The notes: a model not told the origin generated them from the letters alone. A DNA stretch of 64,000 nucleotides from Mycobacteriales bacterium (GCA_030447385.1 JAUJOY010000003.1:144292-208291); one strand, 5' to 3'. Positions 1-55,065 are shown, counted from the first letter of the stretch. Numbers and translations are program-made.

Positions 1-41
1 CGACGGGTTGTGGGAGCTGCTCGACTCGCTGTCCTGACGGC

Positions 42-1012
42 TCAGATGTCAGGCTGGCAGGAGCCGCGCCCCAGCGCGGCGAGGCCAGCCCGGTCGCCGG
101 CCTGATAGTCCACGATCTTCCCGCTTCCGCGCGGAGCCATGATCTGCGCCGGGTCGTCCACATGTGCGAGGCCGACGAGGTGGCCCAGCTCGTGGAGCAG
201 CACGGCTCGGGCGGCTGGCTCGCCGGCCGTCCGGCGGATCTCCTGGATCTTGCGTGGGTCGAGGTAGACCACACCGGAGACGTAGGTGACGTCACCGCTC
301 GGCGTGCGCGCCCCGCTGGGTCCGGCCTCGCCCGCGATGTCCACCCCGAAGTCCGGGACCTCGGCGCGGGTCGCCCAGGCGATGAGCACCGGTGCCCACC
401 GGTCGCCGTAGCGGTCCTTCTGGTAGCTGGAGCGGTCCTCGGACGGCGCCTCGGTAGTCGCGCCGTCGTTGACGAGCTGCAGCCCGGTCGCGAGAGACAG
501 CCGGGCTGCGGCGTCCAGGATCATCGCCTGGCCGCCGGCAGGCGCGTTGTCCGGCCGGATGACGTAGTGGAGGGGGCGGCAGGGTGACCAGGTGGTGGGT
601 CTGCGGCTGGCCCGTCGTGGCGCAGAAAGCGAAAGCCGTGCCCTTCCGGCACCGAAGCGAGCTCCGGTGCAGCGCCCAGGGGCTGCTTGGCCTCCTCGAG
701 GCCTGGCGGAGGACCGGTGGGCTCCGGCGCGACGCCCTGACCGGGAAGTGCCAGCTCACCTCGACTCGACTGCCCGTAGAGGGTCACCCCGGCCAGGACG
801 GCCGCCAGGGTGAGGCCGGTGACCAGCCCGAGCCGCGAGCGCTTCCTGCGGGGTGGTGCCGACGGCGCCTCCAGCAGCGAGGTCGTGGCCCCGCGGAAGG
901 GCACGGGGGCCACGGGTATGCCCAGAGCCTCGTCCAGCACCCACTGCGGCACCCGACCCGTGGGTGAGCTGCGCAGCCCGCTCGGTCCTGGTTGCTGCTC
1001 CCGCTTCGTCAC
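42..1012 (-). pseudogene. Matrixin-like zinc metalloprotease with N-terminal membrane anchor; the coding frame appears interrupted near 595-640
   Basis: ORF 42..524 carries the zincin motif HELGHLVGLAH. Its frame stays open upstream (reads ...PTTWSPCRPLHYVIRPDNAPAGGQAM...) but has no start codon there. ORF 521..1012, in another frame, supplies a plausible N-terminus: a basic stretch, a hydrophobic helix LGLVTGLTLAAVLAGVTLY, then ...GHGFRFLRHDG, before turning into P/R/S-rich text. Together they make ~323 codons. Confidence 0.5.
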
Positions 1013-1073
1013 CCCGCCCCCTCGTCGCGGGGCAACCTATCCTCCGCCTTCCGGATCGTCCGGCTGATGGGAA

Positions 1074-2021
1074 ATGTCACCTTCTGCCGATGCGGCGGTC
1101 ACACCTCGTAGGCTGGGCCGTGTGCCTGAGCTGAAGCGGGTGCCGGCAAACGGCATCGAGATCGCGTACGAGACCTTCGGCTCCCGAGGCGATCCCCCGA
1201 TCGTGATGGTCATGGGGCTGGGCACGCAGATGATCGCGTGGCCCGACGAGCTGTGTGAGGACCTGGTCGAGCGCGGTTTCTACGTGGTGCGCTTCGACAA
1301 CCGCGATGTGGGGGCAAGCACGCATCTGGACGGTGTCCGCGCCCCGCACGTGGCGGAGGTCCTGTCGCGGCGCCGTCGCCCCGCGTACACGATCGAGGAC
1401 ATGGCCGAGGACGCCCTCGGCCTGATCGACGCGCTCGAGGTGGGGCCGGTGCACCTCGTGGGCGCGTCGATGGGCGGCTTCATCGCGCAGACCGCTGCGG
1501 TGCGCCGGCCGGACCGGCTGCGCAGCCTCACGCTGATCATGACGTCCACGGGATCACGTCGCGTGGGTCAGGCCGATCCCCGGCTGTTCAGCCGGCTGCT
1601 CAAGGGGCGGGTGGCGGGCAGCCGCGAGGAGGCGATGGACGCGGTGGTGGAGACGTTCCGGATCATCGGCTCGAAGGGGTTCGCCTTCGACGAGGCGCGG
1701 CTGCGCGACGTCGGCTCGCGCAGCTACGAGCGCAGCCACGACCCGGCGGGCTACTTCCGGCAGCTCGCGGCAGTCGTCGGGCAACCCAACCGGACCGCCG
1801 CGCTCGCGCGGCTGGACCTGCCGACACTGATCATGCACGGGCTGCAGGACCCGCTGGTCGCGCCCAGCGGAGGGCTGGCGCTCGCCCGGGCGATCCGCGG
1901 CTCGCGCTTCGTCGGCTTCTCCGGGATGGGGCACGACCTGCCGCGCGAGCTGTGGCCGGAGTTCGCCGACCACATTGCGGCATCAGCCCGCCGCGCGGAC
2001 CGGGCTGCGCTTCCGGTCTGA
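1074..2021 (+). CDS. Alpha/beta-fold hydrolase
   Basis: 315 aa. It has the nucleophile elbow GASMGGFIAQ, an IVMVMGLG oxyanion-region motif and a C-terminal GMGHDLP (catalytic His region). The start could instead be the downstream GTG. Confidence 0.85.
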   Translation: MSPSADAAVTPRRLGRVPELKRVPANGIEIAYETFGSRGDPPIVMVMGLGTQMIAWPDELCEDLVERGFYVVRFDNRDVGASTHLDGVRAPHVAEVLSRRRRPAYTIEDMAEDALGLIDALEVGPVHLVGASMGGFIAQTAAVRRPDRLRSLTLIMTSTGSRRVGQADPRLFSRLLKGRVAGSREEAMDAVVETFRIIGSKGFAFDEARLRDVGSRSYERSHDPAGYFRQLAAVVGQPNRTAALARLDLPTLIMHGLQDPLVAPSGGLALARAIRGSRFVGFSGMGHDLPRELWPEFADHIAASARRADRAALPV

Positions 2022-2070
2022 CGCTGCGGAGGGGCGTGTCCACGCGCACCTTGCGCCCGGAAGAGCGACA

Positions 2071-2094
2071 GGAAGCGGCGCGGCTGCAGGCTTG
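2071..2094. terminator. GC-rich hairpin between the convergent hydrolase and grdA genes (candidate bidirectional terminator)
   Basis: CGGCTGCAG-gcttgg-CTGCAGCCG, a 9-bp perfect stem with a 6-nt loop, lying in the 88-nt gap between two stop codons. There is no clear U-tract. Confidence 0.4.
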
Positions 2095-2109
2095 GCTGCA
2101 GCCGGCCGC

Positions 2110-2559
2110 TCAGGCCTGCATCGAGCGCACGGCGGCCGTCAAGGCCTCGGCGTCGAGCACGTCGGCCATCAGCCCGATCTGCTCTTCCCAGACGTCGTCC
2201 GGCACCTCAGCCTTCACGGCGTCGTCAAGCACGTGGTACACCTCGAGGCCCAACTGGACCCCTGCCAAGGCACCTGCATAAGCCGGATCCCCCTTGATCA
2301 CCGTCTCGGCTGAGATCTCGGCGGCCTCCGGATCGGGGGCCCCGAGCAGCACGACCAGTGCACTGGGGTCGTTGGCTTTAGTGAGCCGGAGGATGGCCTC
2401 CTGGCTCTGCAGGTCCATGGCTCCTGACGCCGTTCAAACGAAGCACTCGGTGGCCATGAAGGCCACCTCGGCTCCGGCCGCCTTGGCGCAGGCCGCGATG
2501 GCCGTCCCCGAGATGCCGTCACGCTCTCCGAGAGCGATGACCTTCCGGTCCTGGAGCAT
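2110..2559 (-). CDS. grdA: Glycine/sarcosine/betaine reductase complex selenoprotein A (GrdA); in-frame TGA at 2434..2436 read as selenocysteine
   Basis: ATG at 2559 is preceded by GGAAGGAGG. The translation is [61 protein letters not shown]...[23 protein letters not shown]... The CFV-U-TA(A/S)GAMDL core and the AGxLAGVxLGLxVYH block match GrdA as I remember it. The ORF track only shows the part after the TGA (2110..2418). Confidence 0.88.
2386..2424 (-). promoter_or_regulatory. Candidate SECIS-type stem-loop downstream of the grdA UGA
   Basis: Starting 9 nt after the TGA: GGAG-CC-AUGG ... CCAU-C-CUCC (long-range stem). An alternative local hairpin is CC(A)GGAGG-ccau-CCUCCGG. Hand-folded only. 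Confidence 0.35.
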
Positions 2560-2562
2560 GGG

Positions 2563-2904
2563 CTAACTCACCTCCTTCCGCTGCTCGTCCAGCCACGTGT
2601 TCAGTCCTTCCGGCGACAGCGAAGGGTCGGAGAGCCGACCTACTTCCTCACCGTCACGGAACAACAAGAAGGCGGGGAGGCCCATGATGCCGAGCTCCAT
2701 GCACAGCCGACGGGCCTTGGGCGCTTCTACCTTGATCACCCTCATGTCGCCGGCGTACTTCTCGGCGAGAGCCTCGACGTGGGGGAGGAGCACCTTGCAG
2801 GGCTGACACTGGGGTCCCCACACGTCGACGAGCACGGTGCCTTCGGAGACCAGGTCGCGAAAGTCGCTTCCCGTCGCGTCCACAATGCCGGCGGAGCCGG
2901 TCAT
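2563..2904 (-). CDS. Thioredoxin-family protein (CQPC active site) embedded in the grd operon
   Basis: MTGSAGIVDATGSDFRDLV...VLVDVWGPQCQPCKVL...; 113 aa. Its ATG overlaps the grdC stop (ATGA at 2901..2904) and its stop lies 3 nt before the grdA ATG. The longer ORF-track version (to 3051) is an R/P/G-rich extension overlapping grdC. Confidence 0.85.
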   Translation of the reverse strand: MTGSAGIVDATGSDFRDLVSEGTVLVDVWGPQCQPCKVLLPHVEALAEKYAGDMRVIKVEAPKARRLCMELGIMGLPAFLLFRDGEEVGRLSDPSLSPEGLNTWLDEQRKEVS

Positions 2905-4325
2905 GCCGACACCTGATTCCGTTCCAGCATCACGCTCATCCCATCCGACAACTGGCACATCCTGCCGAGGAACAGGCTGCCCTTGGCGATCAGCATTACC
3001 CGGTCTGCCGACCCGGCCGTCAGCCGGTCCAGCGCGTGCGGAACGTAGCACAGCGACGAGGCCAGATGACCTTGCGTCGGGCTGTAGCCGGGCATCCCGC
3101 GTTCGGCGACGAAGGCGGCGATGTCGTCCTTGGCGATGTCCCCTCTGCGGGCGGCGAGGGCCGCGATCGTGCGGTAGTTCCGCTCCGGGACGTTGCCGCT
3201 GCCCTGGGGCTCGGTCAGCTCAGGGTTGTGCAGCTCCGTGGCGTAGTCGTCGACGGCCGTCATCGGCATGCCCAGGCCCGCCAGGGGCTTCACCACCAGC
3301 GCCTCCATCACCTGCGGATTGGAGCCGCCTGCGGACACCGGATGCCTGCCGACGCTGTCCAGCCGGACGCGGGGGGAGGAGCCGTCGTCGGCCTCGACGA
3401 TCATCGCCGTCCCACCGAGCAGATCTTCCAGCACGGGCATGTTGTTCTTCAGATGCCCCTGGAACTTCATCCCGAGCTTGGCCATGGAACCCCCGGCGAC
3501 GACCGCCACCCGGCCGAAGACCCCGGCCGACACGAGGCTGGCGGCGATGACCATCGCGGGAACGGGCGCGGCGCAGAAGTTCTTGACGTCGGCTCCCGAC
3601 GCCTGGCTGAGCCCGGCTGCGGCCGCGACGGCCTTGGCCATGTTGCCGCCGCCTCGCTGGTATCGGTCGCCGATGGCTTCCTCGCCGCAGCCAAGGACGT
3701 AGTCGACGGACGCCGGGTCGATGCCGGCGCTCTCGAGCAGGTGCAGCAGCGCTAACGTGGCAGTCGCCTTGGCCGCCAGATTGTCCAGCAGTACGTGGGC
3801 GCCGAGCGCCTCGTCGTCCACGTCTCCGCACCGGAAGGCGGCGCCGCCGCCGATCACGCTCAGGGCACCGGGCTCGGCCGCCGCCGCGTCCACGTCACCG
3901 CCGGCGCGCTCCACCCGTTCGAGGTCCAGCCGCTTGGCGAGCGGGTGGCGAGCCAGGTCAGCGGCGGCGCGCGCGACCGCGTCGTCGGAGAGGGTGAGCA
4001 GGTTGAAGTCGTCAACGCCCGCCAAAAGCCCGAGGAACTCCGCTTCCGGCATGATCTCGCCCGAGCGGCTCCAGCGGGAAGCACCCTCGGCTGCGGCGTC
4101 ACCCCACCAGGGACGGACCGGCAGGTCGCGCGGGTGCAGCGCGTTCACGTAGGCCTGGTTGGCGGGATAGGCGACCGCATCATCGAAGCTGCGCAACGCC
4201 GAGGTGAACTGGGCCGCCACCTCGTCGGACTTGGCCAGCTCCCGGCGGGGCTTGGAGCCATGCCGAGCCAAGGAGGGCACGTGGGCCAGCACCTGGCTGC
4301 TGCCCGAGATCACCACCTTAGGCAT
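2901..4325 (-). CDS. grdC: Glycine reductase complex protein C, beta subunit (GrdC, thiolase/KAS-like)
   Basis: MPKVVISGSSQVLAHVP..., ...FDDAVAYPANQAYV..., GCGEEAIGDRYQRGGGNMAKAVA, VKNFCAAPVPAM (acyl-Cys region), ...KGSLFLGRMCQLSDGMSVMLERN. These blocks match GrdC as I recall it. The start overlaps the grdB stop by 8 nt. Confidence 0.85.
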   Translation of the reverse strand: MPKVVISGSSQVLAHVPSLARHGSKPRRELAKSDEVAAQFTSALRSFDDAVAYPANQAYVNALHPRDLPVRPWWGDAAAEGASRWSRSGEIMPEAEFLGLLAGVDDFNLLTLSDDAVARAAADLARHPLAKRLDLERVERAGGDVDAAAAEPGALSVIGGGAAFRCGDVDDEALGAHVLLDNLAAKATATLALLHLLESAGIDPASVDYVLGCGEEAIGDRYQRGGGNMAKAVAAAAGLSQASGADVKNFCAAPVPAMVIAASLVSAGVFGRVAVVAGGSMAKLGMKFQGHLKNNMPVLEDLLGGTAMIVEADDGSSPRVRLDSVGRHPVSAGGSNPQVMEALVVKPLAGLGMPMTAVDDYATELHNPELTEPQGSGNVPERNYRTIAALAARRGDIAKDDIAAFVAERGMPGYSPTQGHLASSLCYVPHALDRLTAGSADRVMLIAKGSLFLGRMCQLSDGMSVMLERNQVSA

Positions 4326-5664
4326 GGTCCGCCCCTGCGGCTGCGGCCACCGGCATCTTCGGCGGCGTGGAGGAACGAGCCTGGCCGGCCTCGAAGACCG
4401 TGGGCTCGTCCACCGCGGTCTGCAGCGCCTCGAGGGCACAGTCGACGAGCTGGCGGCGCCACCGCTTCTCCGCGTCCGCGTCGAGCGAGGGGTCTCCCGT
4501 GGGATACGGGATGCCCCGGGTGCGCACGATGCGGGGCGCCCCCACCCGCTCGGCGATCGACACCAGATTGCAGAGCAGCGCCGTGGGGATCCCGGCCCGC
4601 TCCAACTCCTTCGCTAGCGTTGACCCGCAACGCGTTCCCGTACCTCAAGTGGCGGTCAGGATCGCGGCCCGCGCGCCGGAGCGGCGCAGGTCGGCGGCCC
4701 ACTCGACGCCGAAGCGGCGGGCATTGGCCACCGAGGTGCCGTTACCCGTGGTGACGAAGTACTCCCCGAGCAGCCCGCCGATCGCTCCCTCGGCCTCGAG
4801 CTCGCGCGCCGCGTCGAGGGGCAGGATGCGGTGAGGGTCCTCGTTCGCCCAGGCCGTCGAGAAGCCGCCGTGCACCGACATGTAGTCCCCAGGCGCCAGG
4901 GCGTCGCGGTCCTCGAGGGGGTAGCGGAGCCACTTCGTGGCACGGGCGGACTCGAGGCCGTCGGGGTTGTCGGCGACGACCAGCCCGCCTTCGGAAACGA
5001 GGGCGAGCATCACCGTGGAGGCGTCCGCAACCGGCGCCGCCGGCGTGACCCGGTCGAAGCGGGGCAGGGGGATCTCGGTCGCGGCCGCATCGCCGCCGAG
5101 CCGGGCAAGTGCCAGGTCGACGGCGCGCGTTGCCGCGTTGTCGTCGGTCACGACCGTCAGTCGCGCCGCTGCGCCGATGCGCCCGTCCTCGGCGGTCAGC
5201 GTCTCGCCGGCGAGCAGGCGCCGGATGCCGGCGGCCAGACGCTCGAGGGAGGGGGCCATCCTCCGGGCCACCTCCCCGCTGGCCACCACGGGCGCCGCGC
5301 CGGCCTCGTCCAGCCCAGGGTTGTCCTCGTGCATCGAGGCCACACTGGCCACGCCTGCCTGGTGGGCAGCGGCCACTACCCGGGCGCAGGCCAGGCCGTA
5401 GCGGCCGCTGGTGAACGCCGGACCTGCGACCACCAGGTCCGGGTCGGCCGAGCGCACCAGGCCGACGATCTCGTCGACCTTGTCCGCCGCCACGTCGTCC
5501 CCGCACCACACGGTGGCCACGATCTCGTGCTCGGGCGCCACCAGCTCGGCCAGACGCCGGCCGGGGCCTGAGGGACCGTCGAGCAGGAGCGGCCCGGTTC
5601 CCGCGGAATCCTCACCACCGACGCCGGCGAAGAACTGGTTGATGTAGTGCACGATCCTGGCCAT
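4318..5664 (-). CDS. grdB: Substrate-specific selenoprotein B subunit of a Grd-type reductase (GrdB/GrdF/GrdH family); in-frame TGA at 4645..4647 read as selenocysteine
   Basis: GGAGG lies 8 nt upstream of the ATG at 5664. The N-terminus is MARIVHYINQFFAGVGGED (typical GrdB). ORF 4645..5679 ends ...ARAAILTAT-TGA, and the same frame continues GTGTRCGSTLAKELERAGIPTALLCNLVSIAERVGAPRIV...GDPSLDADAEKRWRRQLV... (ORF 4318..4605). The TGA sits in the conserved (S/A)T-U-GT.TRCG motif. Confidence 0.88.
4617..4633 (-). promoter_or_regulatory. Candidate bacterial SECIS hairpin for the grdB UGA
   Basis: On the coding strand, 11 nt after the TGA: GCGUUG-cgggu-CAACGC. This is a 6-bp perfect stem with a 5-nt G/U-containing loop, and the spacing matches that of the E. 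coli fdhF-type element. Confidence 0.5.
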
Positions 5665-5714
5665 GACGGACACCTCCAACAGCGATCCAGGCCCATCAGG
5701 CCGAAGGGTAAACC

Positions 5715-6968
5715 TCAGCCGGAGCGGGCGGCAATGCGGCCCCAGCCGAGCGGACTGAGAGCGCAGTAGACCACGGCAGTGGGCACCTCGAACGATGCCG
5801 CCGCCGGCGCCTTCACCAGGGCGAACTGCTCCCCGCCGTACGCCTTCTCCATCTCCGGCAGGTGCAGGACATGGTCGTAGTTGCCCGTGCTGACCATCGC
5901 CGTGGCCCGCTCGGGTGCCACGACCACCGAGGGGCCGGTGCCATCGACGCCGGCCATCTCGGCGTAGAGGCCGACGGGTTGGATGCCGAGGTCGACGAGC
6001 GCGTCCATCTTCAAGGCCACGTCGGCGTCGGCGTTACCGCCGCCCTCCTTGGTGACGATGGCGGCGTCGAAGCCGGCGGCGGCACACACCTTCGCGGCGA
6101 ACAGGGAGATCAGCTCCTTGGCGCCCTGCTCGACGGGCTCCGGACAGATGACCAGGCCCGCGAACTCCACGTCGTTGCCGTGCCGGCGCCGCAGCTCATC
6201 GACGACCGGATGGTTCTGGTGCATGAAGGTCGGGTTCTTCAGGGCCGGGTGGCCGAACTGCCCACTCACCACTGCACCGTCGTCGAGCTCACCGGGATCG
6301 AGCAGGGTGGGCAAGCCGGCGCCGAAGCTGCGCCCGTAGACGAAGACGTCCTTGAACGAGCCCTGGGTCTGCAGGTTGGTGACGACGCCGATCCGGGGCA
6401 GGTCCCCGCCCCTGGCCCCGGCTGAGGGCGAGGGAAGCTCTTCGACGGCGTCAGGGGCCGCGTCCAGGGACGCCTCTGCCAGTGCGGCCGCCAGCCGAAG
6501 CGCGCCGCGGCGCAGCGCCGCGTCCACCCGTTCCCACTGTGCTCCCTGCGCGGGGGTGAACTCGACGACCAGGTTGTGCGTCGCGCCCAGCGGCGACAGC
6601 GCCGCCGCCGGCCCGCTGAGGTCGACCAGCGCCTCTTGAGCCCGCGGCAGGAACCCTGCCGTGACCACGGTGGCGCCTCGCAACACGTGCGTCTCGCCGC
6701 TGCCCTGCGGGCGGGCGGGACCGACGAAGCCGGGAAAGATGCCACCCCCGCCGGGCCCCTTGCTCCGTGGCTCGACGGCGTCGAGGACCTTGACGATGCG
6801 GGCGCTCTGGCCGGGCGAGACCCACGAGAGCTCCACGGCGGCCAGTGCCTCGTCGGCCAGCAGACCGCGGGCCTGCTCGGCCGAGACGGTCAGCACCCCG
6901 TCGGCGAAGCTCGTCCGCTGTCCGAAGCCGACCTCCCGGACCTGATGCACCAGCCTGGTGAGCGCCAC
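5715..6968 (-). CDS. grdE: GrdE/GrdG/GrdI-family subunit of Grd-type reductase protein B (possibly the unprocessed, GrdI-like type)
   Basis: ...ARIVKVLDAVEPRSKGPGGGGIFPGFVGPARPQGSGETHVLRGATVVTAG... and ...HQNHPVVDELRRRHGNDVEFAGLVI... match GrdE blocks. The GTG at 6968 gives an N-terminus (V)ALTRLVHQVREVGFG that is colinear with clostridial MRLE.G.IFIKD.QFG. An alternative ATG lies at 7001. Confidence 0.8.
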   Translation of the reverse strand: MALTRLVHQVREVGFGQRTSFADGVLTVSAEQARGLLADEALAAVELSWVSPGQSARIVKVLDAVEPRSKGPGGGGIFPGFVGPARPQGSGETHVLRGATVVTAGFLPRAQEALVDLSGPAAALSPLGATHNLVVEFTPAQGAQWERVDAALRRGALRLAAALAEASLDAAPDAVEELPSPSAGARGGDLPRIGVVTNLQTQGSFKDVFVYGRSFGAGLPTLLDPGELDDGAVVSGQFGHPALKNPTFMHQNHPVVDELRRRHGNDVEFAGLVICPEPVEQGAKELISLFAAKVCAAAGFDAAIVTKEGGGNADADVALKMDALVDLGIQPVGLYAEMAGVDGTGPSVVVAPERATAMVSTGNYDHVLHLPEMEKAYGGEQFALVKAPAAASFEVPTAVVYCALSPLGWGRIAARSG

Positions 6969-7125
6969 GTGCGCATACTGCCACCCCGGCCCGGGTGGCA
7001 TGGTTCTCGTCGTCCCTGTCCGGTCCCTCGCTCCCCCTGGGCCACGTGCGTCACCCGAGCTCGTGACCGGTCGCCGATGACTTTCCGTACACCGTCCGGT
7101 CATAGTGTCCAACCGGGAGGAAGCC

Positions 7126-8241
7126 ATGGCAGGGGTACGGGTACTGGTCGGCACGCGCAAGGGGGCCTTCGTGCTCACCAGCGACGAGAAGCGGGTGGAC
7201 TGGGAGGTCGGCGGGCCGCACTTCGGGGGCTGGGAGATGTACCACCTGAAGGCGTCCCCCGCCGACCCGGACCGGATCTACGCCTCGCAGTCCTCGGGCT
7301 GGTTCGGGCAGCTCATCCAGCGCTCGGACGACGGCGGGCGCACGTGGGACCCGGTCGGCAACGACTTCCGCTACGAGGGCGTGCCCGGCACGCACCAGTG
7401 GTACGACGGGACGCCGCACCCGTGGGAGTTCGCGCGGGTCTGGCACCTGGAGCCGTCCCTGAACGACCCCGACACGGTCTACGCCGGCGTCGAGGACGCG
7501 GCGCTCTTCTCGACCACGAACGGCGGCCGGTCCTGGCAGGAGCTCCCCGGGCTGCGCGAGCACGGCTCCGGGTCCCGCTGGCAGCCGGGCGCGGGCGGGC
7601 TGTGCCTGCACACGATCCTGCTGCACCCGAGCGACGAGCAGCGGCTCTACACGGCCATCTCCGCAGCCGGGGCCTTTCGCAGTGACGACGGCGGCGCGAG
7701 CTGGCTGCCCATCAACAAGGGGCTGCTGTCCGGCGAGATCCCCCAGCAGGAGGCCGAGGTCGGGCACTGCGTCCACAGCCTCGCCATGCACCCGGATCGC
7801 CCCGACGTCCTGTTCATGCAGAAGCACTGGGACGTCATGCGCAGCGACGACGCAGGCGGCTCGTGGTACGAGATCAGCGGGGACCTCCCGAGCGACTTCG
7901 GCTTCCCGATCGAGGTGCACGCCCACGAACCCGACACGGTCTACGTCGTGCCGATCACGAGCGACTCGCACCACTACCCGCCCGACGGCAGGCTGCGGGT
8001 CTACCGCAGCCGCACCGGTGGGGGGGACTGGGAGCCGCTGACCCGAGGGCTGCCGCAGGAGAACTGCTACGTCAACGTGCTGCGCGACGCGATGTCGATC
8101 GACCGGCTCGACGAGTGCGGCGTCTACGTCGGGACCACCGGAGGGCAGGTCTACGCTTCGGCCGACTCGGGCGATTCCTGGACGGCGATCGTCCGCGACC
8201 TGCCGCCGGTGCTGTCGGTCGAGGCGCAGACCCTGGCGTGA
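7126..8241 (+). CDS. BNR/Asp-box repeat beta-propeller protein (sialidase-fold, 'exo-alpha-sialidase-like')
   Basis: GGGAGG lies 5 nt upstream of the ATG at 7126. It has repeated SxDxGxTW-type Asp-boxes ([39 protein letters not shown]). 371 aa. Confidence 0.85.
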
Positions 8242-8531
8242 TCCGCGTCGTCCTGCCGGCCCACCTGCGGGCGGTGGCCCGGGTGTCGGGAGAGGTGCGG
8301 CTCGAGGTCCCCGCGACCACGCAGCGCGAGGTGCTCGACGCGCTCGAGGAGGGCTACCCCGCCCTCCGCGGCACGGTGCGCGACCCGGTCAGCGGCCAGC
8401 GGCGGGCGTTCGTGCGCTTCTTCGCCTGCCAGGAGGACCTGTCCCACGAGTCTCCTGACGACCCGCTCCCCGAGGCGGTCGTACGTGGGGACGAACCGCT
8501 TCTCGTGGTCGGCGCGATGGCGGGCGGCTGA
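8238..8531 (+). CDS. MoaD/ThiS-family ubiquitin-like beta-grasp protein ending in Gly-Gly
   Basis: The GTG start overlaps the upstream stop (GTGA at 8238..8241). (V)[46 protein letters not shown]...[10 protein letters not shown]-stop; 97 aa. Confidence 0.75.
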
Positions 8532-8833
8532 GCCGGCGGACGCTCAGGCGCGGCTCCCAGCCAGGTGAGCGTGGTGTCCGCGGGCCTGGATGGCGACGAG
8601 CGCGTCAGCAGCGCCCCGGAGCACGCCGCTTCCACCCGCCATGTGCAGCCCCTGCCGGAGCCTCGGCCGGGCCTGCTGGGCGGCGCCCGGCCAATCACCA
8701 GTAATGCCCGTCCTTTCGAGCCGGAAACCCGTTTCCGGCATCGTGGACTTTTCTCGCAGACAGGCGGAAGGTGTGCCCTGCGCCGCCGCCCTTCCGGACC
8801 CCCCGCCAGAGAGCGCGACGCAGGAGCTGCCCG

Positions 8834-9499
8834 ATGGATGCTGCCGCCGCACTCGAGACCCACGACCTGCCGACGGCCATGTGCGCGCCGCACGAGATGG
8901 CGTTCACGGCATTGGACGACGCGGAGGGAGGCGCCTTCGCCGCCGTCGCCTGGTGCTCCGCGCACCTGGTCGCCGCCCATCGGGTGCTCTATGCAGAGGC
9001 CGCCAAGCGGCTGCCCGACGGCGCACGGCGGGTCCGCGTGCAGCGGGCGGTCGACCACCGGCTCGAGCAGGCGGTGTGCCGGCTGGACCGCAAGCTCACC
9101 GGCGACACGCACCTGTGCGGGACGTCCGTCACCGAGCTCGCGGAACAGGTGCGGGCGGTGCTGAGCGAGCACGCGGCGACGGAGGCCGAGCTGGTGGCCG
9201 ACCTGATGGGCATCCTGGACGAGCAGGAGCAGGAGCAGGTCGCCACGCGCCTGGCAAAGGCGATGCGGTGCGCCCCCACCCGGCCGCATCCGCACACCCG
9301 CCACATGCCGCTCGGCGGCCTGGTCTCCCGGCTGGACGCGTGCATCGACCGGGCTCGCGACCTCATGGACAACCGCGTCGTCCCGACGCCCTACAACGCC
9401 CGAGCCCCCCGCACTCCCGGGCGCTGGGCGTGCTACCTGATGGGGACGCCCTACCCGACGGCTCCCGTGCACGAGGTGAGCGAGCGGGCGCAGGCCTGA
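8834..9499 (+). CDS. Hypothetical protein, possibly hemerythrin-like (HHE cation-binding type) domain
   Basis: MDAAAALETHDLPTAMCAPHEMAF...; helical, His/Glu/Asp-rich, with a ...APTRPHPHTRHMP... segment that I associate with actinobacterial hemerythrin-like proteins. Assigned from memory only. Confidence 0.5.
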   Translation: MDAAAALETHDLPTAMCAPHEMAFTALDDAEGGAFAAVAWCSAHLVAAHRVLYAEAAKRLPDGARRVRVQRAVDHRLEQAVCRLDRKLTGDTHLCGTSVTELAEQVRAVLSEHAATEAELVADLMGILDEQEQEQVATRLAKAMRCAPTRPHPHTRHMPLGGLVSRLDACIDRARDLMDNRVVPTPYNARAPRTPGRWACYLMGTPYPTAPVHEVSERAQA

Positions 9500-9592
9500 G
9501 GGCTGCCCCCCGGACCCGTCCCCGCCGAACCTGCCCCCGCCGGTCATGGAGTTGCTGCACACCCACACGCCTGCGCTCCGGGCACCCACTCC

Positions 9593-10180
9593 GTGATCAG
9601 CGCGAACGGGTGGAGGCGGCCGCTGGTCCTGCTCGACGTCGACGGGGTCCTCAACGCCGTCCCCTACTTCGGCCGGTCCGAGGCGTGGTCGGACTGGCAG
9701 GTCGGTGAGGCCGCCGCTGCCGGCTCCCGGTTCCGGATCACCTGGTCACCCTCGGTCGTCGACGCCGTCCTGTCGTGGCGGGAGGTGGCCGAGGTGCAGT
9801 GGCTGACGACCTGGGGGCGCGACGCGAACGCCTCCCTCCGGCACCTCGTCGGCCTGCCCGAGCTGCCCGTCGCCGGCACCCACGACGAGGTCGTGGCGCC
9901 GCCCGGCACCGGTGATCCCGAGGCCGGGACGCTCGCAGCGCTCACCCCGGCCGCTCCCGACCCGCTCACCGGGCGGTGGTGGAAGTTCGACGTGGTCCGC
10001 CGGCTCGTGCACGACGACCCGGACCGGCGGCTGGTCTGGATCGACGACGACCTCGCCCGGCAGGAGGACATCCGGGCGTGGATGCGGCGCGAGGCGCAGT
10101 GCCTGCTCGTGGCCCCTGAGCCGTCCTCGGGGCTGACCCCGGCGCATCTGGAGAGCGTGGACATCTTCCTGCGCAGCTGA
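9593..10180 (+). CDS. HAD-superfamily hydrolase-like protein
   Basis: GTG start. HAD motif I is LLDVDGVLN and the late acidic motif is VWIDDDL. 195 aa. Confidence 0.6.
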   Translation: MISANGWRRPLVLLDVDGVLNAVPYFGRSEAWSDWQVGEAAAAGSRFRITWSPSVVDAVLSWREVAEVQWLTTWGRDANASLRHLVGLPELPVAGTHDEVVAPPGTGDPEAGTLAALTPAAPDPLTGRWWKFDVVRRLVHDDPDRRLVWIDDDLARQEDIRAWMRREAQCLLVAPEPSSGLTPAHLESVDIFLRS

Positions 10181-10362
10181 CCGCGTCCGGCCCGCTCGGC
10201 GCCCGGACCCGCGGCGCCGGACCGCCAGCCGGGTCGCCCAGCCCGGTGCTCGCCGGCGGGGGGTGGCAAGCCCGGGCCCCTGGATCCACAGGACTGCGCC
10301 GCTGCGCACGAAGCACCTTCTGCAGCGGGGACAACGAGGTACAAAGGCGCCGTGTACTTCCC

Positions 10363-13300
10363 GTGCTGAGGCTGCACCGCGCCGAGCGCGCCGACGTGCT
10401 GGCCGACGCGCTGGCGCAGGTGCTCGCGCAGCCGTTGCCGGATCCGTTCGCTGCCGAGGTCGTGGCCGTTCCCGCAAAGGGTGTCGAGCGCTGGCTGACC
10501 CAGCGGCTGTCGACGGTCCTCGGGGCTGCTTCAGGCGGGGGGGACGGAGTCGCCGGCAACCTCCGCTTCCCCAGCCCCGCACGGCTCGTCGAGGAGTGCG
10601 TCGTGGCCGGCAGCGACGTCGTCCCCGAGGACGACCCGTGGGCGCCGGCGAGGCTGCTGTGGCGACTGCTGGAGGTGATCGACGACTGCCTCGACGAGCC
10701 GTGGTGCAGCGTCCTCTCGCGGCATCTGGGTCGGGGTGAGGACGAAGCGCGTGCCGGTCGCCGCTACGCCACCGCCGAGCACCTGCGCGACCTGTTCCGC
10801 TCCTACTCCGCGCACCGCCCGGCGATGCTCGTCGACTGGGCTGCCGGCATCGACTCGGACGGCGCGGGCCGGCCGATGGCCCCGGACCTGGCCTGGCAGG
10901 CGGAGCTGTGGCGGCGGCTGCGTACGTCCCTGGACGCGCCCAGTCCGGCAGAGCGGCTGGACGAGACCTGCGCGCGCCTGCGGGACGAGCCGCACTGCAG
11001 CGACCTGCCCGAGCGGCTGTCGCTGTTCGGCGCGACGCGGCTCACGACCGAGCAGCGCGCTGTCCTGCGGGCCCTCGGGGAACACCGCGACGTGCACCTG
11101 TGGCTGCCGCACCCGAGCCCTGCGATGTGGGCGGTGCTGCAGGAGGCGCCCGCGACCTCCCGCCGCCGTCAGGACCAGACCGTGCTGAAGGTCGGCAACC
11201 CGCTGCTGGCGAGCCTTTCCCGTGACACCCGCGAGCTCCAGCTGCTGCTTGCGGGAGTGCCCGAGACGCATCACGCCGCAGCGCACGAGCCGGACACCCT
11301 GCTCGCCGCACTGCAGGCCTCGATCCGCAACGACGCCGCGGATCCCGCGGCCGCCCGGCCGGACGGCACCGTCCAGGTCCATGCCTGTCACGGGCCGCCG
11401 CGCCAGGTGGAGGTCCTGCGCGAGGCCCTGCTTCACCTGTTCCAGCAGGACGGCACCCTCGAGCCACGCGACGTCCTGGTGATGTGCCCGGACGTCGAGA
11501 CCTACGCGCCACTGATCCGCGCCGCCTTCGGTCAGCCGGGTGCGGCCCACCCGGGGCACCGCCTGCGGGTACGCCTCGCCGACCGCTCGTTGCGCCGGAC
11601 CAACCCGCTGCTGGACACCCTGGCCGGCCTGCTGGCGCTTGCCGACGGCCGCGTGACCGCCAGCGAGGTGTTGGACCTGGCGGCCAGCGCCCCCGTACGC
11701 CGGCGCTTCGGGTTCTCCGAGGACGACCTGGAGCGGCTGCAGGACTGGGCCGCCCGGGCGAATGTGCGGTGGGGGCTCGGGCGGCAGCAGCGCGAGGCGT
11801 ACGCGCTCGGCGGGGTGCCGCAGAACACCTGGGACACCGGTCTCGACCGCATCCTGCTCGGGGTCGCCGCGGACGAGAGCGAGCTCGGCTGGCTCGGCCT
11901 CGCGCTGCCGCTCGACGACGTGGACAGCAGCGACATCGACCTCACGGGTCGGGCGGCGGAGCTGGTCGACCGGCTCGACCGGGTGCTGCGCCGGCTCCAG
12001 GGCACGGAGCCGGTCTCAGGCTGGTTCGACGCGCTGAGCGAGGCGCTCGACCTGCTCACCGAGGTGCCCGAGGACGACGCCTGGCAGCTCGCTCAGGCAC
12101 GTCGTCAGCTGGCCGAGGCCGCGGAGCACGGGCCCGACGTGGTGCTGCGGCTGGCGGACGTCCGCGCGCTGCTCGCCAGCCGCCTCGCGGGGCGCCCGAC
12201 CCGCGCGAACTTCCGCACCGGCGAGCTCACCGTGTGCACGATGGTGCCGATGCGCTCGGTGCCGCATCGCGTCATCGCCCTGCTCGGGCTCGACGACGGC
12301 GTGTTCCCACGCACCGGCGGTGTGGACGGTGACGACGTCCTGCAGCGCGACCCGTGCCTCGGCGAGCGCGACCCGCGCAGCGAGGACCGCCAGCTGCTGC
12401 TCGACGCGGTGATGTCGGCGGGGAGCCACCTGCTGCTGCTCTACACCGGTGCCGACCCGGTCACCGGGGCGACCCGCCCGCCGGCGGTGCCGCTCGGCGA
12501 GCTGCTCGACGCCGTGCGCGCCGGCGTCGGGATGGACGCGATGGCGGAGGTCGTCTCCCGTCATCCGCTGCAGCCCTTCGACGCCCGCAGCTTCCGGCCC
12601 GCCGCGCCGTTCAGCTTCGACCGCGCTGCCCTGGCGGGGGCGGTCGCCTCGGCCGCACCGCGCACGCCGGAGCCGCCGTTCCTGCCGGAGCCGCTGCCCG
12701 AACGCCCTGCCGACGTCGCACTGGCCGAGCTCGTCGCGTTCCTCGTCCACCCTCCGCGAGCCTTCCTGACCCGCCGCGTCGGCGTGCACGTCCCCGACCG
12801 GGAGGCGTCGGTCGCCGATGCGCTGCGCGCCGAGCTGGACCCTCTGCAGAAGTGGGAGGTCGGGGACCGCATGCTCGCGGCCCGGCTCGCCGGGGTGGGG
12901 GTGTCCGAGTTCGTCCAGGCGGAGTGGCGACGCGGCACGCTGCCCCCCGGACCGCTCGGGATGCGCCTGCTCGACGAGCTGGAGCGGGCGGTCGAGCCGC
13001 TGGTCGCTGCCGCTGCGCAGATCCAGGTCGGGGCACCCCGCTCGCTCGACGTCGTCGTCGAGCTCGGCGCCGGCCGGCGCCTCATGGGCACGGTGAACGG
13101 GATCTACGGCGAGGTGCTGGCCGGCACGTCGTACTCCAGGTTGGCCCCCAAGCACCGCCTCTCCGCATGGGCCGGACTGCTCGCCGCCGCCTGCTGTGGA
13201 GCGGACGCGCCCGCGACAGCGGTGACCACCGGTCGCGGGCCGCACAAGAGGCCGGTGTGGCGCTCGGTCCTCCGCGTGCCGCCGGCGCCCTTCGACGTCC

Positions 13301-13617
13301 TGCGCGATCTCGTCGCGCTGTACGACGAGGGCATGCGCGAGCCGCTGCCGGTAGCTCCCGGCGCCTCGCACGAGTACGCCACGCGGCGGCAGCGGGGGAA
13401 CAGCGCTCCGGAGGCGCTGGAGGCCGCGAGCAAGGAGTGGGACTCGCGGTACGGCGACAGCACGGACCGCCACCTGGCCTATGTGCACGGCGCCGGTGCG
13501 TCCTTCTGCGGCCTCACCGCGGCTGGCGCCCCCGGGGAGGAGACGACCCGCTTCGGTGCGCTTGCGCGGCGGCTGTGGGGACCCCTGCTGGCCGTCGAGG
13601 TCCTGGGCGCGCCATGA
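10363..13617 (+). CDS. recC: Exodeoxyribonuclease V gamma subunit (RecC)
   Basis: ~1084 aa. The N-terminus (V)LRLHRAERADVLADALAQVL is typical of RecC. It is followed by recB and recD with overlapping stop/start codons. The start is uncertain (the ORF opens at 10246). Confidence 0.85.
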   Translation: MLRLHRAERADVLADALAQVLAQPLPDPFAAEVVAVPAKGVERWLTQRLSTVLGAASGGGDGVAGNLRFPSPARLVEECVVAGSDVVPEDDPWAPARLLWRLLEVIDDCLDEPWCSVLSRHLGRGEDEARAGRRYATAEHLRDLFRSYSAHRPAMLVDWAAGIDSDGAGRPMAPDLAWQAELWRRLRTSLDAPSPAERLDETCARLRDEPHCSDLPERLSLFGATRLTTEQRAVLRALGEHRDVHLWLPHPSPAMWAVLQEAPATSRRRQDQTVLKVGNPLLASLSRDTRELQLLLAGVPETHHAAAHEPDTLLAALQASIRNDAADPAAARPDGTVQVHACHGPPRQVEVLREALLHLFQQDGTLEPRDVLVMCPDVETYAPLIRAAFGQPGAAHPGHRLRVRLADRSLRRTNPLLDTLAGLLALADGRVTASEVLDLAASAPVRRRFGFSEDDLERLQDWAARANVRWGLGRQQREAYALGGVPQNTWDTGLDRILLGVAADESELGWLGLALPLDDVDSSDIDLTGRAAELVDRLDRVLRRLQGTEPVSGWFDALSEALDLLTEVPEDDAWQLAQARRQLAEAAEHGPDVVLRLADVRALLASRLAGRPTRANFRTGELTVCTMVPMRSVPHRVIALLGLDDGVFPRTGGVDGDDVLQRDPCLGERDPRSEDRQLLLDAVMSAGSHLLLLYTGADPVTGATRPPAVPLGELLDAVRAGVGMDAMAEVVSRHPLQPFDARSFRPAAPFSFDRAALAGAVASAAPRTPEPPFLPEPLPERPADVALAELVAFLVHPPRAFLTRRVGVHVPDREASVADALRAELDPLQKWEVGDRMLAARLAGVGVSEFVQAEWRRGTLPPGPLGMRLLDELERAVEPLVAAAAQIQVGAPRSLDVVVELGAGRRLMGTVNGIYGEVLAGTSYSRLAPKHRLSAWAGLLAAACCGADAPATAVTTGRGPHKRPVWRSVLRVPPAPFDVLRDLVALYDEGMREPLPVAPGASHEYATRRQRGNSAPEALEAASKEWDSRYGDSTDRHLAYVHGAGASFCGLTAAGAPGEETTRFGALARRLWGPLLAVEVLGAP

Positions 13618-16600
13618 GCTTCGACCTCTACGGCGAGCTGCCGCGGGGCACGTCGGTCCTCGAGGCCAGCGCCGGCACGGGCAAGACCTGGACGATCGCG
13701 GCGCTCGCCACGCGCTACGTCGCCGAAGGTGTGGCCGAGCTGTCGGACCTGATGCTCGTCACGTTCGGGCGGGCCGCCACGCAGGAGCTGCGCGAGCGCG
13801 TACGCGAGCGGCTCGTCTCCACCGTGCGCGGGCTCGGACGCGACGGCGACGACCCGCTGGTGAAGCACCTGTCAAGGGCGGGGCCGGAGGAGGTGCAGCT
13901 GCGGCGGCAGCGCCTTCTCCGGGCGCTGTCGCAGTTCGATGCCGCCACCATCGCGACGACGCACAGCTTCTGCGAGCAAGTCCTGAAGGGGCTCGGCTTC
14001 GCCGGGAACGCCGATCCCGGGGCCACCCTCGTCGAGTCGGTCGACGACCTGCTGCGTGAGGTGGTCGACGACCTCTATCTGCGCAAGTTCGCCGTGCACA
14101 CGGCTGCGCCGCCGGCGATCACCGCGGGCGAAGCGAGAGAGGCCGCGCGGGCGGCGATGCGGGACCGCCAGGCCCGGCTCGAGCCGGCATCGGCCGACCC
14201 GGCGTCCGGGCCCGGTCAGCGGGTGGGGATCGCCCGCGCGGCGTGCGTCGAGCTCGCCCGGCGCAAGAGCGCGGCGGGCATCCGGGACTTCGACGACCTG
14301 CTGTTCCTGCTGCGCGACGTGCTGGTCGACCCGGCCTCCGGGCAGGCGGCCTGCGCTCGGCTGCGGGCGCGCTACCGCGTGGTGCTCGTCGACGAGTTCC
14401 AGGACACCGACCCGGTGCAGTGGGAGATCCTGCGCGTTGCGTTCCACGGCCACGCCGCGCTGGTCCTGATCGGCGACCCCAAGCAGGCGATCTACGCCTT
14501 CCGGGGAGCGGAGGTGCTCAGCTACCTGTCCGCCGTGCGCGAGGCCGACCGGCACGAGACGCTCGCCACCAACTGGCGCAGCGATGACGGACTGCTGCGC
14601 GCCCTGGACCACCTCTACGGCGGCGCTTCACTCGGCCACCGGCAGATCGTCGTCCGTCCGGTCGTGGCAGCGCACGCCGCCCGGCGTCTCGGTGATGGTG
14701 CTCCGCTGCGCCTGCGGGTGCACCCCCGCACGGGTTCCGGGCCGCTCGGGAAGAGCGGTTTCCCGGCGGTCGCGGCACTGCGCGAGACGGTTGCCGCTGA
14801 CGTGGCCGCCGACGTCGTACGCCTCCTGCACAGCGGCACCTCGCTCCGTCACCAGGGCGGGTCCCGGCCGGTACGTCCAGGCGACGTCGCGGTGCTCGTA
14901 CGCCGGCACGTGCAGGCGGCGGCCGTGCAGGCGGCGCTGGACCGAGCCGACGTGCCCTCGGTGATGTCGAGCAGCACGAGTGTCTACGCCACCCCCAGCG
15001 CGCGCGACTGGCTGTGGCTGCTGCACGCCCTCGAGCAGCCGCACCGAGCGGCACGGGTACGCCTTGCGGCGCTGACGCCGCTGCTCGGCTGGACCGCGCC
15101 ACGCCTCGACGCGGCGGGGGACTCCGGCACGGACGAGGTGGGGGCCCTGCTGCGCGAGGCGGCGCAGCTGTTCGAGCAGGCGGGCCTGGCCGCCGTGTTC
15201 GAGCGGTTCTCGGCGCGTACCCGCCTCGACAGCCGGCTGCTCGCTCAGGAGGGAGGCGAGCGGCGGCTGACCGACCTGCGACACCTCGCGCAGTCGCTGA
15301 ACCGCGCTGCGGTCGAGGGCTCGCTCGGGCTCGCGGCGCTGGTCAGCTGGCTGTCCGAGCGCGTGGAGGACCCGGAGGCGGCAAGCCTGTCCGACCGCAG
15401 CCGGCGGCTGGAGAGCGACGCTGCGGCGGTGCAGGTCGTCACGGTGCACGCCAGCAAGGGGCTGGAGTTCCCGATCGTCTACGTGCCCTACGGGTGGGAC
15501 GGCGCGAAGAACCCGTCCTCGACGACCCTGCGGCTCCACGACCCCGACGGCGCACGGGTGCTGGACATCGGCGGCAAGGACGGGCCCGGGTGGGCGCAGC
15601 GCAAGAAGACGGCTGACGTCGAGGACGACGGCGAGGAGCTGCGCCTGCTCTACGTCGCACTGACCCGGGCGCAGTGCCAGGTCGTCCTGTCCTGGGCACC
15701 GGGAGCGGTCACCGCCGGAGCCCCGCTGCACCGGCTGCTGCTGGGGCGCACGCAGGGCGAGCCCGCCCCGTCCGCGCGCGCGGCCGTTCCCGAGGACGCA
15801 GCTGCGCTCACCCGGCTCGCCGCGTGGGGGTGGCCGGAGGAGATCTCGGTGGAGCCGGTCGGAGCCGTCGCTGCGGTTCGCTGGCAGCCGGACCAGGAGG
15901 AGCCGGGGTCGCTGGCGGCGGCGCGATTCGACCGGACGCTCGACATGGCCTGGCGGCGCACGTCCTACTCGGCCCTCACCTCGACGGTGCACGACGCTCC
16001 GCGCGTCGGCAGCGAGCCCGAGGAGCCAGAGACGACCGACGAGCCGGCGTCCTCCTTCTCCCTGGCAGAGGACCTGACGCCGGCCGGGCCGCCGTCCCCG
16101 ATGAACGGCCTGGCCGGCGGCGCCGCCTTCGGCACGCTCGTCCACGGCGTGCTGGAGGCCGTCGACACCGCCGCGGACGACCTGCCCGCGGAGCTCCTCG
16201 GGCGATGCCGTGCCGCGGTGGCCTCCCGGCTGTCGTCGGCGGAGCCGGCCGCACTGGCCGCTGCGCTGCTCGCGGTGCTGCGGACCCCGCTGGGGTTCGG
16301 CACGCTCGCAGAGGTCGCCCCGGCCGACCGGCTGGTGGAGATGGACTTCGAGCTGCCGCTCGCCGGGGGCGAGGACCCCACGAGCTCACCGGTCCTGCTG
16401 CACGACATCGCCGGACTGCTGCGGCGCCACCTGCCGGCGGACGACCTCCTCCTGCCCTACGCCGACCTGCTGCAGACGGTGGACGCGCTCCCGCTGCGCG
16501 GCTACCTGTCGGGCAGCATCGACGCGGTGCTGCGGCTGCCGGGACCGGCCTACCTCGTCGTGGACTACAAGACCAACCGGCTCGGGCGGGGCGACCTGAC

Positions 16601-38860: not shown

Positions 38861-39591
38861 AGCAGCTCCTCCAGGTCGGCCACCACGACGTCGGCGCCGG
38901 ACTCCCGCAGCGCCTGTGCCTGTCCCACGCGGTCCACCCCGACGACGAGCACGAAGCCCCCGGCCCGGCCCGCGGCGACACCCGCGAGGGCGTCCTCGAA
39001 GACGACGGCCCGGTCCGGTCCGACACCGAGATCCGCCGCTGCGGCGAGGAAGGTGTCCGGCGCGGGCTTGCCAGGGAGCGAGCGCTCGCGGGCGGTGACG
39101 CCGTCCACCCGCAGGTCGATCAGCGGCGCGAGGCCGGTCACCGCGAGGACCGACTCGGTGTTGGCGCTGCTGGACACGACCGCGCAGCGCAGGCCCGCCT
39201 CACGCGCAGCGGCCAGGTAGCGGCGGCTGCCCTCGTAGACCCGCACGCCGTCGCTGTCGATCCGCCCCAGCAGCAGCTCGTTCTTGCGGTTGCCGATGCC
39301 GTGCACCGACTCGACGCCGGGAGCATCCTCGAGGCTGCCCTCGGGCAGGGTCATCCCGCGGCTCGCGAGGAAGCTGCGTACGCCGTCCTCGCGCTTCTTG
39401 CCGTCCACGTAGGAGATGTAGTCCGCGCCCGGGTCGAACTCCACGAACGGCTCGCCGGTGCGCTCGGCCCGCTCGCGCAGGTAGTCGTCGAAGGTCTGCT
39501 TCCACGCCGCGTTGTGGACCGAGGCGGTGTCGGTGAGGACCCCGTCCAGGTCGAACAGGCAGGCGAGCACATCGTCGGGCAAGCCGAGCAC
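38857..39591 (-). CDS. pgmB: Beta-phosphoglucomutase (HAD family)
   Basis: GGAGG RBS before the GTG at 39591. [12 protein letters not shown] (motif I), [21 protein letters not shown]. 244 aa, with a 4-nt overlap with the GH65 start. Confidence 0.88.
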
Positions 39592-39664
39592 GGGACCTCC
39601 AGGAGCCGGGCCTGACGGCCCGCTACGACTGTGGAGCGGCTGACCGGCCGTATCCTAGAGGGGG

Positions 39665-43393: not shown

Positions 43394-43560
43394 GTCTTCG
43401 AGGGGATCGGGGCCCCGACGGGGCAGCCTGCTGCCGCCGGATGGCGCGTCGACGCGGCACGGGCAGGACCCCCCCGCATATGGTGGGGGCCGGTGCGCAA
43501 CCTCGCGGCCGACCCGGACGTCTTCTCCCCCAGAGACCCGTCCTGCTTGAGGAGCCCGCT

Positions 43561-45273: not shown

Positions 45274-46545
<1,272 letters not shown>

Positions 46546-55032: not shown

Positions 55033-55065
55033 GGCCGCCGTCCTGCTGCAAGGACTGGGAGCGGG

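Follow-up and report, generated by a model that had tools for sequence, protein, structure and literature searches.

A predicted Grd-family selenoprotein operon of a separate subfamily in a Frankiales/Mycobacteriales-like actinomycete

The Grd enzymes, with their two selenoproteins, are regarded as hallmarks of strictly anaerobic amino-acid fermenters. Here, we analyze a Grd-type operon in a 64,000-nucleotide stretch of DNA from a Mycobacteriales bacterium (GCA_030447385.1, JAUJOY010000003.1:144292-208291; hereafter the window). Five co-directional minus-strand frames were confirmed between positions 6968 and 2110, and they encode, in order, a B-component partner protein, the GrdB-type selenoprotein, GrdC, a thioredoxin, and the selenoprotein GrdA (Table 1). 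A gap of 50 nt separates the partner gene from grdB, grdB and grdC share 8 nt where the first stops and the second starts, grdC and the thioredoxin gene likewise share 4 nt, and 3 nt lie between the thioredoxin gene and grdA. The original prediction, made from this DNA alone, had placed the five frames at these coordinates with junctions of −8, −4 and +3 nt and had read them as a Grd-family operon in which two genes are split by a TGA; the coordinates and junctions were all reproduced, the families pass curated profile thresholds, and the observation lies well outside what chance would give. The order of the B partner gene, grdB, grdC, an optional thioredoxin gene, and grdA is kept across related loci.

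Table 1. Features of the Grd-type operon and its surroundings, in window coordinates
Feature	Position	Strand	Remarks
B-component partner gene (PF09338), GrdI/FarE-like unprocessed type	5715-6968	minus	start GTG at 6968
grdB, GrdB-type selenoprotein B	4318-5664	minus	448 codons, Sec340
grdC, component C beta subunit	2901-4325	minus	
Thioredoxin gene	2563-2904	minus	atypical active site CQPC
grdA, selenoprotein A	2110-2559	minus	149 residues, Sec42 in CxxU (ECFV-U)
Candidate grdB Sec codon, in-frame TGA	4645-4647	minus	residue 340, ILTAT-U-GTGTRCG
Candidate grdA Sec codon, in-frame TGA	2434-2436	minus	residue 42, ECFV-U-TASGAMD
Predicted grdB SECIS element	4607-4644	minus	core hairpin GCGUUG-CGGGU-CAACGC at 4617-4633, begins 11 nt past UGA
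Predicted grdA SECIS-like hairpin	2383-2407	minus	AGCC-A-GGAGG-CCAU-CCUCC-GGCU, present in the minimum-free-energy fold
Minimum recombination tract	2206-6722	minus	245/253 of the sister-strain differences in window 1-15664
Nucleotide homology block shared with L002, L003, L004	2093-7011	minus	86-95% identity; blastn and boundary alignments
Extended −10-like motif	6975-6983	minus	TGG-CAGTAT, 6 nt ahead of the GTG start
8-bp GC-rich hairpin, no U-tract	2082-2103	minus	GGCUGCAG...CUGCAGCC, begins 7 nt after the grdA stop

An open reading frame caller splits both selenoprotein genes at the TGA, grdB into pieces of 344 and 95 amino acids and grdA into pieces of 41 and 102. The expectation that automated annotation would fragment such a locus is borne out in public data: a protein search with the GrdB-type protein returned more than 1000 homologues, and almost every one of the top 120 is cut at the same codon, at a length of 335-345 amino acids. 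Some of these proteins already carry generic names at NCBI, and many homologues are called 'glycine reductase' at JGI. Some relatives are roughly twice the usual length as a single protein (P0116, 760 aa; P0163, 798 aa; P0206, 774 aa; P0255, 789 aa); P0116 contains both PF09338 and PF07355, so in this case the gene for the B partner is either fused to grdB or read through into it.

The family membership of the five proteins was established with curated profiles. GrdA matches NF040748 with 192 bits (cut-off 130) and PF04723 with 189.5 bits, GrdC matches NF040746 with 543 bits (cut-off 450), and the GrdB-type protein matches TIGR01918 with 406 bits (cut-off 65). The B partner aligns over its full length with PF09338 (342 bits). 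Residue conservation was assessed in a comparison set of 81 loci, of which 80 were taken from 282 species-level genomes and one is the sister strain described below. GrdC contains the thiolase/KAS-like Cys (VKNFCAAP), which is conserved in 74/74 loci. The thioredoxin scores 64 bits against PF00085, and its top NCBIfam match is clostridial TrxA at 85 bits, below the cut-off of 140; the gene is found in 53 related loci, mostly with a CxPC active site, which reads CQPC in the window and CEPC in Grd-linked references. There is no solved structure of a B partner, GrdB, or GrdC.

None of the substrate-specific models accepts the B-component proteins. The GrdB-type protein fails the GrdB equivalog TIGR01917 (369 bits versus 602), the GrdF model (407 versus 800), and the GrdH exception model NF040795 (359.5 versus 775), and the B partner fails both GrdG, its top NCBIfam match (245 versus 780), and the FarE equivalog (145 versus 675). 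When the B partner is compared with a library of representatives clustered at 50% identity, its next relatives do not exceed 47% identity. GrdE and GrdG are proproteins that cleave themselves at a Cys to yield the pyruvoyl group needed for glycine and sarcosine, and GrdI and FarE are without this cleavage-site Cys (PMC10838667). The corresponding column reads SGN/C in GrdE-type references (Cys at residues 239-246) and SGSF in GrdI of Enterococcus gilvus; in the window it is SGQF, with Phe238, and it is Phe, Tyr, or Leu in 80/80 loci. No pyruvoyl group can therefore be formed. The motif around the GrdB active site also departs from the references: U-G-T-G-T-R-C (UxxGxxC) is present in the window and in 81/81 loci, and UGTCTRC (UxxCxxC) in Acetoanaerobium noterae GrdB, E. 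gilvus GrdH, and locus L087. A Firmicutes relative, L085, carries U-G-T-D-T-R-C (UxxDxxC), so the middle position of UxxCxxC varies in the wider family. Because these proteins score below threshold for every substrate-specific model and lack the pyruvoyl-forming Cys, they constitute a separate Grd subfamily that resembles betaine reductase in that lack. The complex is thus a Grd-family member of a previously undescribed subfamily and falls in no characterized substrate class.

Two annotated reference operons were used for comparison, the betaine reductase operon of E. gilvus pCR1A (L089; trxB-trx-grdA-grdC-grdD-grdI-grdH-BCCT) and the glycine reductase operon of A. noterae (L090; trxB-trxA-grdE-grdA-grdB-grdC-grdD). 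The window proteins are about equally distant from both (35%/35% identity for the partner; 39.5% to GrdH versus 41.5% to A. noterae GrdB for the selenoprotein), and across glycine and betaine references identities range from 33 to 35% for the partner and from 39 to 41% for the GrdB-type protein. The window operon shares with the E. gilvus betaine reductase an unprocessed partner with Phe at the cleavage column, the Sec column of the B protein, the selenocysteine insertion sequence (SECIS) hairpin with its register, the CxxU of GrdA, the presence of GrdC, and a CxPC thioredoxin. It differs in sequence (35% to GrdI, 39.5% to GrdH), in having UxxGxxC in place of UxxCxxC, in the absence of grdD, trxB, and a BCCT transporter from the operon and its flanks, and in gene order, with the B genes first and grdA last where the reference has grdA-grdC-grdD ahead of the B genes. 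Betaine reductase was reportedly first characterized in Eubacterium acidaminophilum. The glycine reductase GrdABCDE of Acetoanaerobium (Clostridium) sticklandii and A. noterae has the same protein families, Sec positions, and grdB SECIS element; the clostridial residues Sec44 of GrdA and Sec350 of GrdB (PMC3091704) have Sec42 and Sec340 as their counterparts in the window. In the A. noterae system, the cleavage column is SGN/C rather than SGQF, the motif is UxxCxxC, the operon holds grdD and trxB, and identities to the window proteins are 35% (GrdE) and 41% (GrdB). The fluoroacetate reductase FarE/FarB of Cloacibacillus porcorum combines an unprocessed partner and an altered CxxC with a non-amine X-CH2-COO- substrate and shared GrdA/GrdC (PMC10838667), and it is a precedent for the unprocessed partner and altered CxxC seen here; FarB is without both Cys of the CxxC, whereas the window protein retains the second (PMC10838667). 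Two Firmicutes loci (L085:10001-12602 and L087:9001-11577) have stand-alone GrdE/GrdB pairs with no grdA, grdC, or grdD nearby. These pairs adjoin sigma-54 activators and amino-acid catabolic genes and look like further uncharacterized substrate-specific B components.

The most serious alternative is that the operon encodes a canonical Stickland-type glycine reductase (GrdABCE) that converts glycine to acetyl phosphate. All four Grd protein families are present, the JGI names point the same way, and GrdB is marginally nearer to A. noterae GrdB than to E. gilvus GrdH. Against this stand the Phe at the proprotein Cys position with its counterparts in all 80 loci, the failure at TIGR01917, the UxxGxxC motif, and the negative search for GrdD: neither the 64-kb window nor any of the 81 loci, with up to 10 kb of flank, gave a tblastn match to GrdD of E. 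gilvus, GrdD of A. noterae, or PlsX of Escherichia coli. Nor does Rfam find a glycine riboswitch in the window. We therefore consider a canonical glycine reductase unlikely. The original prediction had called the first gene grdE-like and implied Stickland-type metabolism; the assignment as a Grd B partner stands, and the pyruvoyl-forming Cys on which a GrdE function depends is replaced by Phe238. Glycine is probably not the substrate. With no pyruvoyl group possible, glycine and sarcosine are less plausible than a compound with a good leaving group, and a betaine-type quaternary amine such as glycine betaine, or another such compound (haloacetate-like, for example), appears more likely from the sequences.

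In both split genes, the TGA sits at the catalytic selenocysteine (Sec) position, as originally proposed. The Sec column is TGA in 81/81 grdB and 72/72 grdA genes, and the peptide beyond the codon is conserved. Similarity to GrdA and GrdB does not end at these codons, since single tblastn alignments span both TGAs, and the related grdB and grdA genes contain no other stops and no frameshifts. At codons 43-46 of grdA, the amino acids are conserved and the third positions vary freely, which indicates that the stretch after the TGA is translated. TGA is also the ordinary stop in 23 of 31 host genes, and the codon is therefore not reassigned.

Each UGA is followed by a conserved hairpin predicted to be of the SECIS type. 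The grdB hairpin reads GCGUUGC-GGG-GCAACGC in relatives, and six of its stem pairs do not vary across 77 distinct sequences. The third positions of codons 344-349 are frozen (entropy of about 0), compared to a synonymous-site mean of 1.11 bits over 202 conserved four-fold columns, only 2% of which fall below 0.1. Directly after the TGA of locus L025, the Rfam family SECIS_4 (RF01990) is matched with 39.3 bits (gathering score 38), and the same hairpin occurs in the same register after the UGA of E. gilvus grdH and A. noterae grdB. The window copy has the position of SECIS_4 right after the UGA and its core hairpin, CGUUGC-GGN-GCAACG; it differs in scoring below threshold, in not keeping the model's flanking pairs, and in a wider loop due to a GCA-to-UCA change. 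The grdA hairpin has 10 bp with an interruption. In related loci, 88% of its cells are paired as compared with at most 56% with slid partners, compensatory changes occur at 2-3 pairs, and synonymous sites are constrained at codons 47-54 and 57-58. At its gathering threshold, Rfam gives no match anywhere in the window.

Two ways of doing without Sec were considered, namely reassignment of the UGAs (to Trp, for instance, as in a report on Eggerthellaceae; PMC13462651) and the production of two polypeptides from each gene. Both would fit the lack of Sec machinery in the window and the 81 loci, and the second the ATG (Met48) that follows the grdA TGA. Such readings are very improbable given the use of TGA as a stop in host genes, the restriction of these in-frame TGAs to catalytic Sec columns, the conservation as protein, with free third positions, of the grdA stretch between the TGA and Met48, and the SECIS elements. 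Decoding as Sec is the only economical reading of both TGAs, and from it we infer the corresponding capacity of the host. The original prediction had considered such decoding unexpected here, a view that precedents do not support: Sec decoding is established in Actinobacteria (PMC1794560, PMC5029168), the trait is reported in the relatives Frankineae/Nakamurella (PMC5029168), and it has recently been reported for the whole of Actinomarinales, the order that is sister to Acidimicrobiales (bioRxiv 10.64898/2026.04.03.716425). A second read-through candidate in the window, after an ABC1-kinase gene (TGA at 55066), was rejected since the GC content at third codon positions (GC3) falls to 0.60-0.70 just downstream. 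In frame after that TGA, window positions 54802-55065 hold 88 codons without any start codon.

The host of the operon is a lineage of the class Actinomycetes that is Frankiales/Mycobacteriales-like and not a member of Acidimicrobiales. The best named matches of its citrate synthase are from Mycobacteriales (88%), Frankiales (81-83%), and Pseudonocardiaceae (81%), and those of its HrpA are from Frankiales (78% and 75%), followed by Motilibacter, Micromonospora, Actinomadura, and Streptomyces at 62-64%; no Acidimicrobiales are among the named matches for either protein. RecBC, PAC2, and Rv2466c-like proteins were also found, in agreement with the ordinary actinobacterial neighborhood first described for this stretch. 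Elsewhere in the window, GAF-domain and GGDEF-EAL proteins are encoded in overlapping frames at 19414-22267 (plus strand) and are possibly one longer signaling protein, and a tandem pair of TldD/PmbA paralogues occupies 29661-32539.

By contrast, the Grd proteins of the window are 74-84% identical to those of L005, the nearest locus labeled Acidimicrobiales, and an outgroup-rooted neighbor-joining tree of the B partner places the window together with L001-L004 deep within the Acidimicrobiales radiation. GC content is 71.0% in the operon versus 73.5% in the flanks, and GC3 is 0.871, as compared with 0.927 for a set of 30 host genes (p = 0.002); the operon of most Acidimicrobiales loci equals its flanks or lies slightly above them. 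Loci L002, L003, and L004 align to the window over the homology block only, with no alignment between the flanks, and in this the operon behaves like a discrete unit of transfer. Plasmid carriage was rejected, as the replicons with a match were all from Firmicutes or Photobacterium, with identities of 39-42%.

A sister strain (GCA_030446855.1, JAUJMM010000003.1; L001 and L086) provides a comparison at closer range. Its contig is nearly identical to the window, with 99.99% identity over 37665-45393 and 8 differences across roughly 10.8 kb of sequence flanking the operon, and the operon itself diverges by about 5% between 2206 and 6722. The pattern is the one left when homologous recombination replaces the operon with a diverged allele; strain mixing in a consensus assembly is an alternative and would still mean that two alleles coexist at one site. 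Between the two alleles, the ratio of nonsynonymous to synonymous polymorphism (pN/pS) is 0.15-0.24 in all five genes, which indicates that both are functional and under purifying selection. Horizontal acquisition, which the original prediction had proposed to examine, is thus supported by several marks of transfer in this host: nesting in the tree, lower GC3, homology limited to the operon in varied contexts, and an allelic replacement confined to the operon.

An assembly or binning artefact, in which an Acidimicrobiales fragment was joined into an actinomycete contig, would also produce an operon whose composition and phylogeny are unlike those of its flanks, and the sources are metagenome-assembled genomes (MAGs). 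We give this explanation a very small chance. Host sequence lies on both sides of the operon, at the same site, in two independently assembled contigs (498,689 bp, the one holding the window, and 372,132 bp) that carry different operon alleles. The limits of the divergent tract fall within coding sequence, and the operon ends on either side of it are identical, a pattern of homologous recombination and not of a chimeric join, and the Mycobacteriales-labeled MAGs L002 and L004 carry the operon too. That the locus is decaying and its TGAs are nonsense mutations, as two stop-interrupted genes and fragmentary gene calls might suggest, is the least probable alternative and is excluded by the conserved TGA columns, the intact frames, the pN/pS values, and the synonymous constraint that lies exactly over the hairpins past each TGA.

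We consider it likely, taking these results together, that the operon is intact and under purifying selection, that it encodes a thioredoxin-dependent Grd-family selenoenzyme complex of a separate subfamily, and that it was transferred into a Frankiales/Mycobacteriales-like actinomycete. Several observations weigh against this reading. The 64-kb window and the 81 related loci yielded no selA, selB, selC, or selD; there, tblastn with E. coli SelA, SelB, and SelD gave no match and tRNA scans gave no tRNA-Sec; two 96-nt ARAGORN calls (in L025 and L041) were discarded as tRNA-Sec candidates since Rfam did not confirm them. The grdB SECIS of the window scores 19.5 bits with SECIS_4 (E = 1.1) and is weaker than that of most relatives, the GCA-to-UCA change breaking the loop-closing pair. 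A TrxB reference query found no homologue in the window or the 81 loci, and with GrdD, a PlsX-like protein, and TrxB all missing within this reach, the canonical catalytic cycle cannot be assembled from the visible genes; a housekeeping trxB is expected elsewhere in the genome. The substrate argument proceeds from one negative feature, the missing Cys, and no transporter or catabolic neighbor backs it. Finally, the tree is a single-protein neighbor-joining tree without bootstrap support, and the taxon labels are as assigned by the MAG submitters.

The sequence ahead of the operon offers a candidate promoter. An element of the form TGn plus mAnnAT (TGn-CAGTAT) is kept in about 17 of the closest loci, always 6-7 nt ahead of the GTG or ATG of the B partner gene, and the sequence further upstream is unrelated, which suggests that the promoter is carried with the operon and that the first gene is leaderless. 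An in-frame ATG upstream, at 7001, is not conserved in L002, L003, and L005, and together with the constant spacing of the motif this favors the GTG at 6968 as the start. A generic sigma-70 promoter scan of the window found nothing. In L007, two tandem copies of TGCCAGTATGG precede the B-partner start by about 20-45 nt (near L007:4630-4673), and the TGnCAGTAT element could be a regulator-binding site instead of, or besides, a −10 box. At the other end of the operon, the GC-rich hairpin past grdA may be a terminator; a terminator scan that required a T-run found none in the window.

The pathway had also been thought unexpected in an actinomycete, and this view needs revision. Scanning one genome per species revealed the subfamily in at least 282 species-level genomes, most of them MAGs of Acidimicrobiales. 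Judged by record title, the 80 best loci come almost entirely from MAGs assigned to Acidimicrobiales, Acidimicrobiia, or unclassified Actinomycetota; L002 and L004, two of the closest, are labeled Mycobacteriales. In the literature searched, there was no report linking Acidimicrobiia to glycine or betaine reductase. The flanks are poorly conserved, and over the 81 loci plus the window the best neighbor cluster reaches only 16/81. The clusters encode Cu-amine-oxidase-like proteins (16 loci), SAM methyltransferases (12), ODP di-iron proteins (8), and serine recombinases (6). A search of conserved neighbors for a substrate clue found none of these four clusters in the window, and no transporter.

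Individual neighborhoods in the relatives contain further features. In eight loci (e.g., L035:13594-14334), a co-directional gene of the ODP family (an oxygen-binding di-iron protein with a metallo-beta-lactamase fold) lies about 60 nt past grdA; it may serve in oxygen sensing or protection of the selenoenzyme, and it is absent from the window. In six loci (e.g., L075:456-1445), a large serine recombinase gene with the orientation of the operon precedes it by about 33 nt, which hints that the operon is able to travel on integrative elements. Both L002 and L003 have a tRNA-Ser(UGA) 1.2-1.9 kb downstream of grdA (L002:14748-14836, L003:8348-8435). These two loci are 88% identical from the tRNA onward and 93% identical in the operon, with an unrelated segment between, which points to a variable insertion region beside the tRNA. 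The flank of an Acidimicrobiia locus (L042:17700-17781) contains Ms_AS-4 (RF02464), an actinobacterial small RNA family, at 91.7 bits.

A plausible catalytic cycle can be modeled on the clostridial enzymes (PMC13188914, citing Andreesen's work). By this analogy, the GrdB selenolate would attack the alpha-carbon of an X-CH2-COO- substrate and expel X, and the carboxymethyl group would then move onto the Sec of GrdA. The GrdA Cys would resolve this intermediate to give an acetyl thioester on GrdC, and the oxidized GrdA (Se-S) would be re-reduced by the thioredoxin of the operon via a housekeeping thioredoxin reductase and NADPH. With no GrdD nearby, acetyl phosphate, acetyl-CoA, and acetate are all candidates for the form in which the acetyl group might be released.

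Aerobic bacteria rarely retain selenoproteins, according to a recent review (PMC13188914). A more far-reaching proposal, which we put forward tentatively and hold to be doubtful, is that the operon represents a fourth or fifth Grd substrate class, without a pyruvoyl group or GrdD and with UxxGxxC, in largely aerobic soil and sediment Actinomycetota. Such an enzyme might cleave an abundant X-CH2-COO- compound (e.g., glycine betaine, to give trimethylamine), its acetyl product might bypass GrdD-made acetyl phosphate, and the cassette, with its own promoter and leaderless gene, might spread between actinobacterial classes.

Since public protein sets nearly always hold truncated fragments of these genes, surveys of selenoproteomes and pathways in Actinomycetota undercount them. 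The operon analyzed here belongs to a distinct Grd subfamily that occurs in hundreds of uncultured Acidimicrobiales species and has probably also moved into a Frankiales/Mycobacteriales-like actinomycete. If its substrate is betaine-like, the organisms that carry it could produce trimethylamine in soils and sediments, as a source so far unrecognized, and could act there as an osmolyte sink; with any other substrate, the chemistry of the Grd family would be wider than known.

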